This document shows positions 6,328 through 32,908 of a DNA stretch of 42,160 nt, piece by piece; position 1 is the first letter of the stretch, and each line of letters begins with the position of its first letter. The notes below the pieces were generated by a model. It was not told the origin of the DNA. It did no database searches and saw only the letters and a list, made by a program, of their open reading frames with translations. Source of the DNA: an uncultured Candidatus Saccharibacteria bacterium. Lineage in GTDB: Bacteria > Patescibacteriota > Minisyncoccia > Phycocordibacterales > 2-02-FULL-43-11. The DNA lies in contig CAYGDO010000007.1 of NCBI GenBank assembly GCA_964348785.1, forward strand, positions 1 to 42,160, given 5' to 3'. The position numbers were made by a program, and so were the translations under genes.

Positions 6328-9228
6328 TTATATTTTTTCTTTTAGAATTTCCCCCATTTCACAAAACTCACAACCTCTTTCCTCACATTTTTTATCGATA
6401 AATTCTAAATCGAGTAATTCTTTTATCATTTTATTGATATCATTTTTAAGCCCGTCTAATTCTTGAAATTTTAAATCGAAGGATTCTTTTTTAAATCTTC
6501 CTTTGTCATCCGGCTCTACAAATTCGATAACACCCTCTTCCACTTTTTTGTCTTTGAAATAAGTTTCCAGCATTAATTTATAGAAAAGTAATTGTCTGAA
6601 AATGTCGCCGTTAGAATTTTTAGTATTACCTAGGATCTCATTACGAGTTTTTGTGTTGCCGGTCTTGAAATCAAGGACAACAAAATTTCCATTACTTTTA
6701 TTTATCAATTGATCTATATTACCCTTTAGAGAAATCACGCCCTTATCTCCGGAAAAAGGAATGCTACTCATTTTAAACTCTGATTTTGTGTCTTTAGTCC
6801 AAACATGTCCCTTAAAAAATGATGTTAGAGCTTCTTTTCCTCTTTCTTTCCAATCTTTTAATTCTTTGACCGAAAAATCCATTCTTGATATTTCATCATC
6901 AAAATATTTTAAAGCACTATTAAAAGTCGGTTTCTTGTTTAAATTGAAATCGTCAGCCAATTTTCTTAAGGCGTAGTGTATAGCGGTACCAAACTGCTGA
7001 TGTTTTTCTTGAGCGTGAGGAATTCTAATCAGGTTTTGAAAAAAATATTTCCAAGGACAATTGAGGTAGTTATTAAGAGCCGTGACATTTATTCCCTCTT
7101 CAAAAAGGATTTTAGAAACATAATTTTTGAATTCATCTTTTTTTGAAGTAGGATTATCAGTTTTTAGAACCAAAGAAGGTGTGACTTTTTCTCCCTTTTC
7201 TATTTTTAGAAGTTTTTCATCAATATTGTCTATAAAAGTGCTTTTAGATAAAATTTTGCCTTTATAGTCTTTATCACTGTAAGTAATAATCAGTTTTTCT
7301 TTCGCCCTAGTTAAAGCCACATAAAAAAGTCTTCTTTCATCCATATTTCTGCTTTCTCTGGTGTCATCCTTTTGTAAAGGTAAAATAAAATATTCTCTTT
7401 TGGTTTTTCCAACCCATCTTTCCTCGTTAGCTTTTATAATAAACACAACATCAAATTCCAAACCTTTTGACTTGTGGGCGGTCATTAAAATTATGTTACT
7501 GGTATCATTTTCATTTACTAAATCCGAAGTTTTTAAATCAAATTTCTCCAAAAGCTCAATATCTTTAATAAAATCAAATAATCGAGAACCATTTTTTGAT
7601 TCGGCTGAAGATCTGGCAATGGCATAAAAACTCCTAAATTTTTCAATTTTTTCTATGGGTTTATTAGAATTTAAAAGTTTAGATTTAAAACCGCTTTCTT
7701 CAAAAAGCAGGTCTAAAAATTCAAGCAAGGATTCATTCTTGGCTTTTTTTGTCCATTCATTTATTTTTTTACCCAGTTGATTTAACTTGTCATTATCAAT
7801 TTTATTTATACCGACACTGTTTAAATCTAAAGATAAGCTTTCAATAATATTTGATGAATATTTAGAATTTTTTATCAATTTTAGACAACTCAAAAGGGGC
7901 ATATCTAAAAAATCTAAAAATAAAACTTTGCTTAAATTCTCATCATCTGTCGGATCATTGACAACTCTTAATAAATTTAAGAAGTTTTTTATATCGTTAT
8001 CACCCATCACGTCCTCATCGGACTTTATGACAAAATCAGCATTTCTTTTTCTAAGCCTTCTGCCAACTTCTAAAACGTCATCATTGTTTCTATATAAAAT
8101 TGCTACTTTTTTAGTTTTAGCTAAACTCATAGCCTCTTGAATAACAAAATCTAATTCCTCATCTTCGTTTTCAAAAGAAATAATGGATATAAGCTCACCT
8201 TTTTTCAAATTAGAAGATATCAATTTTTCTCTTTTTATTTCCTCTGTTTTATTTAATAAAAGAGAAAGGTGATGAGAAGCGTCTAAAATTTCTTGAGTGG
8301 ATCGGTAATTTTTAACTAGAGTAATAACTTTTGATTTGGGAAATTTGTTTTTAAAATAAAGGAAATTTTCTAAAGATGCCCCTTGGAATCTATAAATCGC
8401 CTGTTTTTCATCACCGACGATAAAAAGATTTGGGTTGTCATCATAACTTGCAAGTTTTTCTAAAATTTTGTTTTGGTTGCCATTGGCGTCTTGATGCTCA
8501 TCTGCCAAAATATACAAATAATTTTCTTGCAAATCCCTAAGAAGCCCTTTGTGTTTGCTAAGTGCTAGAGAAGTTTCAAGCAACATATCTTCATAATCAT
8601 AAAGCCCATTTTTTATTAAAGATTTTTCATATAGTTCAAATAATTCAGCCAATTCTAAACTTCTTTCATATTTAGATTCATCTTTTTCCTCTACGAGATA
8701 ATTTTGTTTTTTAATCCATTTTTTAAAATCTGTGGGTGTGTAACCTTCTTTTTTTAAATGATTAATAGCTGATTTTAAAGAATTCAAATAATGAAAAGGG
8801 CTGTTAACTGTTTTGATTTCTTTAAAATCGTTTTTTTCTAAAATCTCTTTTATTATTTTTACCTGACCAATCTCACCCGATGGCTTACTACCAATAATTT
8901 TTGGAAAAAACTGAGGATAATTTTGGATAATTTCATTAGCAAAACTATGAAAAGTTGATACTTTCACCCTGTAAGCTGACTCGCCTATTATTTCAAACAG
9001 CTTTTTCTTCATTGATGCCACTCCGCTTTCCGTAAAAGTAAGGGCTAAAATCGATTCTGCGGAGGTATCTGTCAGTCTTAATATATTTGCTATACGAAGA
9101 GTTAAAAGGGTTGTTTTACCCGTTCCAGGCCCTGCTATGACCATAACTGGACCGTCTATGGCATCAACGGCCTCTTTTTGCTCTTTATTTAAGCCCTCAT
9201 AAGCTTTTTTGAAGGTGTCTTTTTTCAC
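6328..9228 (-). CDS. UvrD/PcrA-family helicase fused to PD-(D/E)XK nuclease
   Basis: AGPGTGKT, LADEHQD, VGDEKQAIYRFQGA, MTAHKSKGLEF, ERRLFYVALTRA; C-terminal D..LDFKTG, QLLFY and Cys set. Confidence 0.92.
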   Translation of the reverse strand: MKKDTFKKAYEGLNKEQKEAVDAIDGPVMVIAGPGTGKTTLLTLRIANILRLTDTSAESILALTFTESGVASMKKKLFEIIGESAYRVKVSTFHSFANEIIQNYPQFFPKIIGSKPSGEIGQVKIIKEILEKNDFKEIKTVNSPFHYLNSLKSAINHLKKEGYTPTDFKKWIKKQNYLVEEKDESKYERSLELAELFELYEKSLIKNGLYDYEDMLLETSLALSKHKGLLRDLQENYLYILADEHQDANGNQNKILEKLASYDDNPNLFIVGDEKQAIYRFQGASLENFLYFKNKFPKSKVITLVKNYRSTQEILDASHHLSLLLNKTEEIKREKLISSNLKKGELISIISFENEDEELDFVIQEAMSLAKTKKVAILYRNNDDVLEVGRRLRKRNADFVIKSDEDVMGDNDIKNFLNLLRVVNDPTDDENLSKVLFLDFLDMPLLSCLKLIKNSKYSSNIIESLSLDLNSVGINKIDNDKLNQLGKKINEWTKKAKNESLLEFLDLLFEESGFKSKLLNSNKPIEKIEKFRSFYAIARSSAESKNGSRLFDFIKDIELLEKFDLKTSDLVNENDTSNIILMTAHKSKGLEFDVVFIIKANEERWVGKTKREYFILPLQKDDTRESRNMDERRLFYVALTRAKEKLIITYSDKDYKGKILSKSTFIDNIDEKLLKIEKGEKVTPSLVLKTDNPTSKKDEFKNYVSKILFEEGINVTALNNYLNCPWKYFFQNLIRIPHAQEKHQQFGTAIHYALRKLADDFNLNKKPTFNSALKYFDDEISRMDFSVKELKDWKERGKEALTSFFKGHVWTKDTKSEFKMSSIPFSGDKGVISLKGNIDQLINKSNGNFVVLDFKTGNTKTRNEILGNTKNSNGDIFRQLLFYKLMLETYFKDKKVEEGVIEFVEPDDKGRFKKESFDLKFQELDGLKNDINKMIKELLDLEFIDKKCEERGCEFCEMGEILKEKI

Positions 9229-27817: not shown

Positions 27818-30097
27818 TTATTTAGCCACAGCAACCGCCTCTTCAAACTCAATAGAAAGCAATTTAGAAAGACCGTCTTGACCCATAGTCACGCCATATA
27901 AAACACCGGCACGGGACATTGTTTCCCTGTTATGAGTGATTAAAATAAGTTGAGATAATTTTGAAAGATTTTCTATCATATCACCGTATTTTCTTGAATT
28001 GGCCTCATCAAGAGCGGCATCTGTTTCATCTAAAATAATAAAAGGTGGCGGATTGACTTGGGAAATAGCAAACAAAAGTGCAATGGAAGTTAAAGCTCTT
28101 TCACCTCCTGACAACATTTCCAATCCTTTAATATTTTTTCTCGGCAACTTTACATCTATCTCAATACCCAATTCGGCTTTTCCTTCTTCTTGTTCATCGC
28201 CAACAGATTCCATATTTATTTCAATACTTTCATCAGATACCTTAATCTTTGGCCCCTCCTCAACAACTTTTATTGATGCCTTTCCTCCTCCAAACATCAA
28301 ACAAAAAAAATCATTGAATTGAAAATTTATTTTTTCAATACCCGTTTTAAATTCCTCTTCCAACTTATTATCCAACTCCTCTATGAGTTTCCTCAAAGAC
28401 TCTGAGGAAAGCTCCAGATCAGCAATTTCTTTAGCTAAAAATTCCTCCCTTTCAGAAACCTCCATAAATTCTTTCATTACATCTTCACCGCCACCAATTC
28501 CAGCATCTTCAATTCTAATTTTAAGTTTTTGAATATTTCGCAATCTTTCCTCTTGTTTAGTTCTCTCCTCAATTCCCAAATTTTCAACAGCACTTCCATC
28601 AATTTTCTTCAATTCCTCATCAAAAAGATAAACATTTCTCCCAATCAAAGAAAAACCTTCTCTGATTTCTCTTTCAAATTCCTCTTTCAGGATAAAATTT
28701 TTTGATTTCTGTTCTTTTAAATTAGAAATTTTTACATACAAATCTTTCTGTTCCGACATTAAAGAAAAAAGTTCTCTCTCTGCGTCTCTAGTTTTATCTT
28801 TTTCTTTTTCTATATCATTCTTTATACCCTCATAAGTTGAATAAAGTTCTGATTCTCTAGAAATTGTATTTGTTATTTTCTCATCTAAATCATTTTTTGC
28901 TCTCAATAATTGATCTATATCTTTTTCAAAAGAAACCTCTTTTACATTACCCGAGGTAGAAATTTTGTTTGAAAAAGAATCTGTTATTTCTACAATTCTT
29001 GAATAAATAACCTTTACTCCTTCTAAATTATTTATACTCTCAAGTTCTTTGGCGGTTGCTTTTATTCTTTCTAACAAACCACGGACTTCTTTTGCTAAAA
29101 CCGTGGCGGTATCTTCAGCCTCCGCCTCTTTCTTGGCTTTCTCTATCAAGCGCTTTAAGCCAGAAATCTCACCTTCTATTCTTCCAACTTCTCTCGTTAA
29201 TTTATCCCTTTCTTGCCTTGTAATGCTAAGCTCACTCTCAACCTCTAGAAGTTTTTTTCTTTTATCATCAATTATTGGCGAATCAGCCATTGCCTTTCTC
29301 TCTTCAGTTATCCTTCTCTCAACTTCCACCAATTTCTGCTCTGGAATCTTAGACTCCAAATCTAAATTTTTACCTTGTCTGTCAACGTATATTTTTTCCA
29401 AAAAAAGATACTCTTTATAAGCCAAAGCCAACTCCTCTTGCATCTGTTTTGTCTTCTCGACTTTCTCCACCTGCTTTTTTAAAAATTTAATATGAGGGGC
29501 AATTTCCCTTCTCAAAGATTCTACCTGCTTTATATTTTCTTCAGTTTTTTCCAACTTCCTGGCACTCTCTTTCTTTTTGTATTGATAAATTTTAAGTCCA
29601 AGAGCGTCTTCAATCATCTCTCTTCTTTCTTTAGAATTGGCTGACAAAATTCTATCGGCTTCACCTTGAGAAATAATATGATGTCCTGACGATCCAATGT
29701 GAGCGCCTGCTAAAGTCTCCGAAATATCTTTGAGACGAACAAGAGTGCCGTTGATGAAATATTCAGACAAAGAATCTCTGTAAACCGCTCTTTCAAGAGC
29801 GACCTCATCAAAATCAACTCCAATTTGTCTTTTTGAATTATCAAAAATTATTTTTACAGAAGCTCTGTTTGAACGAGCGACCGTTCCATTTCCTCCATTC
29901 CAAATGAGATCTTCACCTCTTTTTCCTCTCATGGATTTTAGAGACTGTTCTCCGAGAACAAATCTAAAAGCTTCGGCCACGTTTGATTTTCCAGAACCAT
30001 TTGGACCAACAATTGCGGTAATAGACGTCTTGAAATCAAGATTGGTTTTTTTGGCAAACGATTTGAAGCCTGCTATTTCAAGACTTTTTAAATACAT
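27818..30097 (-). CDS. smc: short SMC-family ATPase
   Basis: MYLKSLEIAGFKSF, GPNGSGKSN, LSGGE, ILDETDAALD; only 759 aa; near rnc. Confidence 0.9.
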   Translation of the reverse strand: MYLKSLEIAGFKSFAKKTNLDFKTSITAIVGPNGSGKSNVAEAFRFVLGEQSLKSMRGKRGEDLIWNGGNGTVARSNRASVKIIFDNSKRQIGVDFDEVALERAVYRDSLSEYFINGTLVRLKDISETLAGAHIGSSGHHIISQGEADRILSANSKERREMIEDALGLKIYQYKKKESARKLEKTEENIKQVESLRREIAPHIKFLKKQVEKVEKTKQMQEELALAYKEYLFLEKIYVDRQGKNLDLESKIPEQKLVEVERRITEERKAMADSPIIDDKRKKLLEVESELSITRQERDKLTREVGRIEGEISGLKRLIEKAKKEAEAEDTATVLAKEVRGLLERIKATAKELESINNLEGVKVIYSRIVEITDSFSNKISTSGNVKEVSFEKDIDQLLRAKNDLDEKITNTISRESELYSTYEGIKNDIEKEKDKTRDAERELFSLMSEQKDLYVKISNLKEQKSKNFILKEEFEREIREGFSLIGRNVYLFDEELKKIDGSAVENLGIEERTKQEERLRNIQKLKIRIEDAGIGGGEDVMKEFMEVSEREEFLAKEIADLELSSESLRKLIEELDNKLEEEFKTGIEKINFQFNDFFCLMFGGGKASIKVVEEGPKIKVSDESIEINMESVGDEQEEGKAELGIEIDVKLPRKNIKGLEMLSGGERALTSIALLFAISQVNPPPFIILDETDAALDEANSRKYGDMIENLSKLSQLILITHNRETMSRAGVLYGVTMGQDGLSKLLSIEFEEAVAVAK

Positions 30098-30098
30098 C

Positions 30099-30222
30099 CC
30101 GTTAGAAGTAGAAAACGAACAAATCGTTTCTACTTAAAATTATAGTTAATTTTTTCTGCCTTACGACCTTAATCATATGTTTATATAAATACTTTAAATT
30201 ATTTTTCCGTGACTTCTAACGG
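30099..30222. mobile_element. MITE-like element with 11-bp TIRs and 8-bp target duplication
   Basis: CCGTTAGAAGT (30099-30109) / ACTTCTAACGG (30212-30222), flanked by AATACATC at 30091-30098 and 30223-30230. Confidence 0.8.
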
Positions 30223-30298
30223 AATACATCCATAAATTATAATCTTTTCTGCTTTAAATAAAAAGTTTGATTTTTATTTATAAATAATAAAAAACAAC

Positions 30299-30327
30299 AA
30301 AAAAGCCCCGAGACCGAAGTCTGGGGC
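30299..30327 (-). terminator. cUUCGg terminator of the 30351 gene
   Basis: GCCCC-AGAC-UUCG-GUCU-C-GGGGC plus 6 U. Confidence 0.85.
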
Positions 30328-30350
30328 CAAATGGGCATGGGGGTGAACGG

Positions 30351-30641
30351 TTAGCTGGTCACCTCCTCGCAGTATTCAGGCCGAAAACAGAAAAATCCAG
30401 AATTGCAGTGATCCGTCCAGTACCGGACGGCAAACATCTTCCTCGAAGCGCGAAGAGCTTCCAGGGCCACCTCTCTGGCGACCACAAAAAGCCCCCTTTT
30501 CTCCGCGACCTGCCGAATTTCATCAGGAACTTCGGTCGCGACCGAAAGTTCCTCTCCAATCCACGCCGCCCTGATCCGCTCATCGGCGATTCCGTTGGGG
30601 ATGGATTTGATACGAATCCGACGACCTTTGCCTGTAGTCAT
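30351..30641 (-). CDS. hypothetical protein, GC-rich singleton
   Basis: ORF between a TGGACT-17-TAGAAT promoter and a UUCG terminator; ATG 30641 has GAGGT upstream (track start 30656). Confidence 0.65.
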   Translation of the reverse strand: MTTGKGRRIRIKSIPNGIADERIRAAWIGEELSVATEVPDEIRQVAEKRGLFVVAREVALEALRASRKMFAVRYWTDHCNSGFFCFRPEYCEEVTS

Positions 30642-30751
30642 AACCACAAACCTCAATGTTGAGAACTCTCCTTAGTCCACCTGTGCCTGTTGATGCGACC
30701 TTGGAGTAACGAATTAAAATTCTACAATACCAAATATAAAAAGTCCACTTC

Positions 30752-32746: not shown

Positions 32747-32775
32747 AGTCTATCAAAAAGCCCTTTTAAAATCAA
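32747..32775 (-). promoter_or_regulatory. rpmF promoter, leaderless geometry
   Basis: TTGATT, 17 nt, TGn-TAGACT ending 8 nt before the ATG. Confidence 0.6.
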
Positions 32776-32889
32776 CCCCGTTAGAAGCCACGGGCACTAA
32801 AACAATATTAAGAAATGTTGTTAAAGATTATTTAAAATCTGAAAATTTAGAAACATAGATATACTGTCCGTGCCCTACTTCTAACGGGG
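32776..32889. mobile_element. second copy of the MITE-like family, opposite orientation
   Basis: 12-bp TIR CCCCGTTAGAAG/CTTCTAACGGGG; ends match the 30099 element. Confidence 0.72.
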
Positions 32890-32908
32890 CAAGCCCTTTT
32901 ACTAAAAC

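Follow-up and report, generated by a model that had tools for sequence, protein, structure and literature searches.

The smc gene of an uncultured Candidatus Saccharibacteria bacterium lies in a stretch of 42,160 nucleotides (assembly GCA_964348785.1, contig CAYGDO010000007.1), which we refer to as the window, and our subject is the short sequence in which the start codon of this gene is embedded. On the minus strand the gene order is ABC transporter, a second copy of the element discussed here (copy 2), rpmF, nusB-NUDIX, rnc, a GC-rich open reading frame (ORF) of 101 amino acids (aa) with its terminator, the copy at smc (copy 1), smc and rpsP. The 759-aa ORF at 27818-30097 (minus strand) matches SMC_N (1.9e-65) and has the N-terminus MYLKSLEIAGFKSF; because it is the sole long ORF ending here, the ATG at 30095-30097 (minus strand) is the smc start, and it falls inside a direct repeat, in the reverse complement of the repeat as originally predicted. 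Upstream of it we recognise a 128-bp segment which, with a probability of roughly 0.8 for the explanation as a whole, is a miniature copy, old and lacking any gene, of a mobile element with hairpin ends that seeks out start codons. The features of the locus are given below; L228 and L230 are orthologous loci of two relatives carrying the same element, and L229 is that of a third relative in which the site is empty.

27818-30097, minus strand: smc, 759 aa, intact, beginning at the rebuilt ATG
30091-30099, unstranded: first copy of the 9-bp direct repeat AATACATCC, made up of the target duplication with matching element-end and native bases
30093-30096, minus strand: downstream copy of the 4-bp target duplication, TGTA, giving the TG of the rebuilt smc start (placed by family register and the L229 empty site)
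30097-30109, minus strand: gene-proximal inverted-repeat arm, reading ...ACTTCTAACGGGA on the minus strand and ending in the A (30097) that opens the smc ATG
30097-30224, minus strand: the element proper, 128 bp, a non-coding miniature copy with the polarity of smc; ends placed by family comparison
30106-30135, minus strand: bulged local hairpin that overlaps with the gene-proximal arm and could form in place of the long end-to-end stem; L228 and L230 retain it, one of the pairs being U-G
30124-30171, minus strand: the block of the element that is best conserved across the three orthologues (44/48 and 42/48 positions as in the window)
30139-30144, minus strand: internal -10-like hexamer TATAAT (CATAAT in L228 and L230)
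30194-30229, minus strand: 11-codon mini-ORF, MYSVRSHGKII and a stop, headed by the original smc start codon (30227-30229)
30212-30224, minus strand: gene-distal inverted-repeat arm, TTCCGTTAGAAGT on the minus strand; the consensus is TCCCG..., with C to T at 30223, and L228 and L230 keep TC
30223-30231, unstranded: second copy of the 9-bp direct repeat AATACATCC
30225-30228, minus strand: upstream copy of the 4-bp target duplication, TGTA (family register and L229 empty site)
30236-30241, minus strand: native -10 box TATAAT, 6 nt upstream of the original ATG, a leaderless-type layout
30298-30329, minus strand: intrinsic terminator of the upstream 101-aa gene and beginning of the native smc upstream region

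The core of the segment is a perfect 11-bp inverted repeat, CCGTTAGAAGT at 30099-30109 and its exact complement at 30212-30222, with 102 nt between the arms, just where the original prediction, a reading of the window's letters, had placed it. With up to one mismatch allowed, the 11-mer occurs five times in the window against 0.53 expected, and none of 100 shuffles reached five; a chance origin of the inverted repeat is excluded. Four of the five occurrences form two inverted pairs, one being the smc copy and the other the second copy at 32776-32889. On the plus strand the smc copy reads AATACATC/CCGTTAGAAGT...ACTTCTAACGG/AATACATCC (slashes mark boundaries), and on the minus strand TATAAT-TTATGG-A TGTA TT/CCGTTAG...CTAACGG/GA TGTA TTTAAAA. 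Comparison with the family assigns one more dinucleotide on each side to the element, TC...GA in general and TT...GA in the smc copy, whose terminal inverted repeat is 11 bp perfect and 12/13 when the family end dinucleotide is included; the gene-proximal end is the exact family consensus, and the distal end has one C-to-T change. The copy sits in the standard 4-bp register of the family (CTAACGG/GA/TGTA, with smc reading onward). The flanking direct repeat had been described as exact and 8 bp long: it is exact, and a repeat finder extends it to 9 bp, but the duplication itself, in the family register, is 4 bp. At 128 bp, with an 11-codon mini-ORF as its sole reading frame, the segment has the size of a miniature inverted-repeat transposable element (MITE), less than 300 bp, and the minus-strand TATAAT and the bulged 9+3-bp hairpin within it agree with their first description. 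Neither the element nor its surroundings matched any Rfam family at the gathering threshold or at E <= 1. A reading of the GTTAGAA/TTCTAAC ends as integron attC-like cores was rejected, as the cores stand in inverted order relative to attC and there is no cassette.

The age and reality of the insertion can be judged from relatives, a comparison that the original prediction had itself proposed. Six loci from an SMC protein search (L228, L229, L230, L231, L232 and L233) were compared with the window smc; the boundaries of filled and empty sites come from direct reading of the flanks, MAFFT having put the empty L229 flank on the right half of the element. L228 (SMC 81% identical) and L230 (84%) carry the same element with an identical junction, ATGTATC/CCGTTAG...CTAACGG/GATGTATCTAAAAAG. 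L229 (78%) is empty and runs ATTATAAT-TTTGGG-ATGTACCTAAAG, the site reading ATTATAATTTTGGGATGTACCTAAAG, and L231, L232 and L233 (about 62%) are also uninterrupted; L229 and these three outgroups have the pattern TATAAT-N6-ATGTAYCTAAA in common. In the SMC tree the window and L230 group together (100/99) and are joined by L228 (87/81) and then by L229 (100/100); the filled loci thus form one clade, and the distribution therefore fits a single insertion in the ancestor of the three filled lineages. This shows the smc insertion to be real and to have occurred in the common ancestor of the window organism and two sampled relatives. As predicted, a MITE-like insertion now stands between smc and the sequence once upstream of it, and there are two start codons as a result; empty sites do exist, and duplications do flank other copies, the two things whose absence had been named as telling against an insertion. 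The comparison is also a demonstration that the apparent 8-9-bp repeat is the 4-bp duplication of the family, TGTA, lengthened by the native site: the repeat looks longer at smc because the empty site, GGGATGTACC, already resembles the ends of the element, and the extra bases come from native G's ahead of the ATG and from T(C/T) after TGTA in the gene. Two observations on the homologues themselves may be recorded here. The smc orthologue of the closest relative (L230, 2547-4800) is called as two ORFs of 136 and 599 aa, reflecting a frameshift or an assembly error. One SMC homologue of this clade, P0114, is 1326 aa long and has the extra Pfam domains PF14528 and PF14890, which the other listed homologues lack; we take these to be LAGLIDADG and intein-splicing domains, and P0114 may hold an intein.

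The same ends recur widely. A scan of genome contigs for the pattern CCGTTAGAAG-N80-110-CTTCTAACGG found at least 120 loci, nearly all of them in Patescibacteria genome bins, and the counts of short copies given here refer to 129 among the matches listed plus the window. The family ends are [T/C]CCCGTTAGAAG ... CTTCTAACGGG[A/G]. Two bases past the right end, 92 of the 129 copies have A/G-TG followed by an ORF of at least 50 codons, an arrangement found at 45 of 2000 random positions, and at these start-codon sites (about 70% of those sampled) the polarity is the same throughout; in that orientation the left flank reads ...A TGNN TC/CCG and the right flank CGG/GA TGNN.... The outer dinucleotides covary, TC being paired with GA in 77 copies and CC with GG in 46 of the 129, and this covariation places them within the inverted repeat; one position further in, the bases form a Watson-Crick pair in 120/129, with 66 expected. 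Among the 92 copies the exact duplication is 4 bp in 57, 3 bp in nine and 5 bp in six, so that the tabulation of flanking duplications first suggested as a check comes out in favour of insertion. The target logo is A/TG[A/G][A/G] and the usual duplication TGNN. Copies of the CC...GG type turn the host ATG into GTG, and it is therefore the last base of the element, not the target, that gives the first base of the start codon. In 17 of 63 copies a -10-like hexamer precedes the upstream ATG by 4-9 nt, compared with five of 63 in a shifted control, and motifs of Shine-Dalgarno type occur at only four of these 63 starts; leaderless-type starts are thus common among the targets. For a minority of copies the site is a TTGAC -35 box instead.

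Miniature subfamilies of constant length turn up repeatedly, at unrelated genes and in different genomes (L048, L046 and L044 are examples), and a copy that is not orthologous to that at smc (L011) shares the right half of the smc copy, hairpin included, so this miniature type existed as such. Taken together, these copies point to a family that is large and widespread in Patescibacteria and that lands on start codons and rebuilds them. Stacked insertions were seen at L108 (about 1000-1139), L067 (about 6490-6612), L070 (about 7570-7691) and L196 (112-514); one copy has, as its left flank, the right end of an older one (...CTAACGGGATGAATC/CCGTTAG...), and new copies therefore hit start codons rebuilt by earlier ones. 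The same ends also appear on contigs of bins labelled Syntrophobacter, Planctomycetota, delta proteobacterium and Pirellulales (L017, L026, L063 and L064), through either spread beyond Patescibacteria or contamination in binning.

The window itself holds two copies, the second being the following:

32776-32889, plus strand: second family copy, 114 bp, of the CC...GG type, lying within TTGATT, the -35 box of the rpmF promoter

Its duplication is 3 bp (CAA on the plus strand, at 32773-32775 and 32890-32892), its hairpin is much more stable (-45.7 kcal/mol, z -7.3) and it faces its downstream gene in the opposite polarity to the smc copy. The rpmF promoter of L228 is empty (CTTGCTTTT...), and the window flanks joined with a single TTG reproduce the L228 sequence; copy 2 is absent from L228 and so is younger than the smc copy. 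The two copies have only their ends in common, and a blastn-short search of the element against the window otherwise gave noise. An 11-bp direct repeat, AAGCCCTTTTA, at 32758-32768 and 32891-32901 was considered as the target duplication of copy 2 and rejected, since an imperfect version of both repeats is already present in the empty site of L228.

The original prediction had taken the inverted repeat and duplication for the footprint of DDE transposition, had suggested a search for a transposase with the same ends, and had correctly reported no transposase in the window, where a tblastn search with the family nuclease described below found no related nuclease or transposase. In the 227 loci sampled, no DDE or other transposase lies between paired ends, and intervals of 600-2500 bp between such ends hold only host genes (FtsI-like, IF3, ParA, XerC-like, DprA and others). 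What the search did find was a coding form of about 278 bp. Scanning metagenome contigs for the same ends 240-270 nt apart gave 109 matches at 107 loci, and intact ORFs of 88-93 aa, all of one family, are present in 27 of the 109 long forms, several others being frameshifted versions of the same ORF. In L045 (6223-6500, 278 bp) the left boundary, ATGAACC/CCGTTAGAAGT..., translates as M-N-P-V-R-S-H-W-W-Y-V-Y-V-L..., the element terminates in ...GAC TTC TAA CGG/GGTG, and the ORF matches the Pfam GIY-YIG domain at 2.1e-17; L101 is a second coding case, in which the TGA stop overlaps the rebuilt host ATG. The consensus of the ORF is M[NS]PVRSQxWYVYVL...YIGST...HNxGKNxSTK...PW..IYCE...DARAREKYLKSGxGRRYLKNRLKFFFAxDF, followed by a stop. 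Since the start is borrowed from the host, the left end encodes PVRS and the right end supplies the stop (TAA, 4-5 nt ahead of the rebuilt host start), the nuclease ORF has no start codon of its own and uses the host ATG; in 14 of the 27 intact copies both the borrowed start and a rebuilt host start with a long ORF behind it can be seen. With SVRSH standing where the nuclease has PVRS(H/Q) at its N-terminus, the mini-ORF at smc reads as a truncated nuclease N-terminus; L228 has it open over 11 codons and L230 over 8, from a GTG start. A possible remnant of the nuclease C-terminus in the smc copy was rejected, the in-frame KKLTIILSRNDLFVFYF and its stop being too weakly like ...YLKNRLKFFFAHDF and stop.

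Homologues of the nuclease fall into 862 clusters, with names such as 'GIY-YIG nuclease family protein', 'putative endonuclease' and, wrongly, 'excinuclease ABC subunit C'. The nearest solved structures by sequence are the UPF0213 proteins 1zg2 and 1ywl, and SLX1; NCBIfam and PHROGs give generic, sub-threshold matches to 'homing endonuclease' or 'group I intron endonuclease', with no specific NCBIfam model. Two variants stand apart. Intact nuclease copies are found five codons into the same host gene (ATGAGCACCAATATAAA/CC...) in L159 (2174-2452), L165 (11203-11481), L195 (4866-5141) and L213 (4871-5149), where the host frame resumes after the element at GTA or GTT, without a canonical start, and stays open for 524-567 codons. 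In L111 (7155-7373) a related GIY-YIG ORF (41% identical) is flanked not by CCGTTAGAAG ends but by two copies of a tRNA-like sequence.

At smc, then, the element inserted right after the A of the start codon (A/TGTA), in a target of leaderless appearance (TATAAT, 6 nt, ATG). TGTA was duplicated and the terminal A of the element recreated the smc ATG, so that smc stayed intact, and the old promoter and the old ATG now head the 11-codon mini-ORF that runs through the distal arm. The only coding form found is the nuclease ORF starting at a host ATG, and the likely mobilising enzyme is accordingly sought in this GIY-YIG nuclease rather than in a DDE transposase; we lean, if only slightly, towards the nuclease acting in trans on miniature copies by recognising the hairpin formed by their ends. 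Miniature copies would be propagated as such, and, as copies without a gene have the same bias, the target would be chosen at the integration step and not through selection afterwards. A fuller version of this proposal, to which we hold only tentatively, is of a minimal, nuclease-only DNA transposon (about 278 bp, with a GIY-YIG protein of about 90 aa) aimed at leaderless gene starts or -35 boxes, which would appropriate the promoter and ATG of the host to express its ORF and return translation through the rebuilt start codon. At smc, on this proposal, a gutted copy would have been kept for a long time under purifying selection because it is required for expression, whether through an internal promoter with a hairpin leader or through a stem that masks the smc AUG under control of the mini-ORF.

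What the inserted copy now does for smc has to be approached through its conservation. Element identity is 104/128 between the window and L228, 102/128 between the window and L230 and 121/128 between L228 and L230 (80-95%), compared with 76/188, 78/143 and 66/131 (40-55%) at fourfold-degenerate smc sites, and with 26/60 for the native upstream 60 nt of the window and L228. The best conserved block includes the internal YATAAT and the 5' arm of the local hairpin, and one pair of the long stem differs in a compensatory manner, T-A in the window and C-G in L228 and L230. The smc copy appears to be under constraint, and because it evolves much more slowly than silent sites we infer that it has been co-opted and has probably become part of the expression signals of the gene. 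The open mini-ORF across the distal arm is retained in all three filled loci.

Transcription of smc could start at the native promoter and read through the element, or at the internal YATAAT box, in line with the original prediction that the element supplies promoter and 5' untranslated region, or at both. In the RNA predicted for read-through from the old ATG, the first 15-18 nt pair with the proximal arm and the smc AUG (-30.6, -40.8 and -36.0 kcal/mol in the three lineages), while RNA beginning after the internal box is predicted to form the local hairpin only and to leave the smc AUG open; this 18-bp stem burying the AUG, together with the conserved block, favours an internal promoter. On the other side, the native TATAAT and its 6-nt spacing are perfectly conserved in the window, L228 and L230, and also in the empty L229; this, with the open mini-ORF of the three filled loci, counts against the internal box as sole promoter. 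A sigma-70 consensus scan called no promoter in or beside the element and found no -35 for the internal box; L011, the nearest non-orthologous relative, has AATAAA at the corresponding position; and the internal TATAAT alone is not above chance for the family, in whose copies -10-like hexamers are equally frequent in sense (54/92) and antisense (52/92), so an outward promoter is not a family property. We rate the internal box as a main start of smc transcription at a little below an even chance.

Several other histories could give rise to such a locus. That the resemblance to mobile DNA is accidental and the segment is a host regulatory leader of smc, an attenuator or structured 5' untranslated region, would suit its conservation relative to silent sites and its stable predicted fold (z -4.2 in the window, -5.7 in L228 and -4.9 in L230); it is scarcely credible given over 200 further occurrences of the same ends across unrelated genes and genomes, the closest relatives outside the filled clade, which are without the element and keep TATAAT-N6-ATG, and the lack of any Rfam match. 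A full nuclease copy might instead have landed on smc and been gutted there, as the nuclease-like start of the mini-ORF (M-x-(S/P)-V-R-S-H) and the many long forms that are frameshifted pseudogenes would allow. We regard such decay in place as unlikely, because miniature subfamilies of conserved size stand at unrelated genes and genomes, the right half of the smc copy recurs with its hairpin at a non-orthologous site, and the 124-128-bp form is already present in all three orthologues.

The two remaining alternatives concern the enzyme. A classical MITE derived from an insertion sequence (IS) with a DDE transposase, cut with an 8-bp stagger and now lending its internal TATAAT to smc as promoter, would account for an inverted repeat with an exact 8-9-bp flanking repeat, for the YATAAT box and downstream hairpin conserved in three orthologous copies, and for an internal start by which the predicted stem over the smc AUG is avoided. 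This origin is nevertheless quite improbable: longer intervals between paired ends hold ordinary host genes and no DDE gene, the coding partner is a GIY-YIG ORF, the duplication of the family is 4 bp with the outer dinucleotides belonging to the repeat, and the promoter it invokes has no -35, no strand bias of its hexamers in the family and a conserved native competitor. The other alternative holds that the hairpins are not part of a selfish transposon and are sites of a single-strand nuclease kept by the host for modulating recombination or DNA uptake, on the pattern of NTS/SsnA in Neisseria. It draws on the Ssn nucleases (Chenal et al., Nat Commun 2025; PMC11893778), small single-domain GIY-YIG proteins that when purified cut single-stranded DNA beside a hairpin, and whose genes are flanked by NTS/SRM hairpin repeats with hundreds of dispersed copies, an architecture that the authors note to be IS-like; the nuclease described here has the same size and domain. 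As an account of the present family it is improbable, since discrete 100-130-bp units that are flanked by target duplications, have empty counterparts and sit on start codons in a single polarity behave as insertions, and an ORF that has neither start codon nor promoter of its own and is frameshifted in many copies is typical of a parasite. The NTS/dRS3 core (ATTCCC-N8-GGGAAT) has no match in either element, the four matches with two mismatches elsewhere in the window being at chance level, and for the nuclease Pfam gives the general GIY-YIG domain only, where the Ssn clade is cd10448.

Our preferred explanation, a miniature copy of a start-codon-seeking element, has to contend with several points itself. 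Clear homology between the smc copy and the coding form extends over only about 16 nt on the left and 12 nt on the right; with homology restricted to the ends, the smc copy is therefore not established as a deletion derivative of the coding form, and ends held in common do not prove that the nuclease is the mobilising enzyme. A 9-bp repeat is unusual for the family, at least 9 bp being found in three of 92 copies, which leaves a little room for a truly longer duplication at the smc site alone. Similarity between L228 and L230 continues very high into the first 300 nt of smc (29/29 in its first bases), and their 95% identity within the element could come in part from recombination rather than selection. 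Finally, contigs from the source sample show the filled allele only, with no excision joint, and the sequencing runs holding the stretch are DNA metagenome runs only.

The surroundings of the insertion have peculiarities of their own. The 101-aa ORF between rnc and smc (30351-30745, minus strand) is GC-rich in a genome of about 35% GC and has no Pfam or PHROG match; it is preceded by a GC-rich leader, GGTACTCCAAGGTYGC...GGACTAAGGAGAGTTCT, which like the ORF is conserved in L228, L229 and L230, has no Rfam match and may be an unrecognised structured leader. Between this ORF and smc, a 124-aa ORF on the opposite strand is present in L229 (1397-1771) and L230 (1963-2337) and absent from the window and L228. 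The spacer between rnc and smc is a variable spot.

The significance of the locus lies in an element that enters the start codons of housekeeping genes, here smc, without inactivating them, and in a filled and empty comparison across six related genomes that dates one insertion to a single ancestor. Conservation far above the silent-site level suggests that the host now depends on the inserted copy. If the proposed mechanism is true, it would provide a testable model for integration directed at start sites and for 'translation-transparent' mobile DNA in extremely streamlined genomes, as well as a connection to the newly described Ssn single-strand nucleases.

The smc copy has analogues among the bacterial MITEs, such as Correia, RUP, ERIC and the Rickettsia palindromic elements, which are likewise non-coding sequences of 100-150 bp with terminal inverted repeats, a short duplication and many copies, and which also lie beside genes, form a long hairpin in read-through RNA and may influence the neighbouring gene. 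Correia elements of Neisseria (CREE/NEMIS) have 26-bp inverted repeats, a TA duplication and no start-codon polarity; their ends are unrelated in sequence to those described here and their duplication differs. Classical MITEs are tied to DDE insertion sequences, whereas the only coding relative here carries a GIY-YIG ORF and the element's final base restores the start codon; to our knowledge GIY-YIG is not established as a type of bacterial transposase. The IS200/IS605 and REP/RAYT systems use HUH tyrosine enzymes and subterminal hairpins and make no target duplication. Free-standing GIY-YIG homing genes are larger, have an added DNA-binding domain and a single cognate site, and spread by repair. 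With IS200/IS605 and REP/RAYT, which are compared with Ssn in PMC11893778, the present family has in common a small nuclease recognising DNA hairpins and many gene-less copies, but the smc copy differs in its terminal inverted repeats and target duplication. With the homing genes (such as the seg genes of phage T4; PMC2988022) it has in common a selfish gene whose sole product is a GIY-YIG nuclease, but those genes are without inverted-repeat ends, target duplications and miniature derivatives.

In the same bacterial group, GIY-YIG ORFs occur in non-intron, not homing-like insertions in rRNA genes of the Candidate Phyla Radiation (Tsurumaki et al., J Bacteriol 2024; PMC11270868), and the available part of that account reports neither inverted-repeat ends nor duplications nor start-codon targeting. 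Full-text literature searches found no description of an element family like the one presented here. The closest published system is Ssn/NTS, which is alike in its tiny GIY-YIG protein, in a gene bracketed by hairpin-forming inverted repeats and in the dispersal of the same repeats in gene-less copies, mostly outside coding sequence. It differs in that here the repeat pair bounds a unit of 100-130 bp or about 278 bp, with a 3-5-bp duplication and empty sites, and in the one-polarity placement on start codons and a nuclease ORF that is opened by the host ATG and has its stop within the right repeat. The smc copy, then, is a MITE in form, and what is new about it is the partner enzyme, the target and the start-codon trick.

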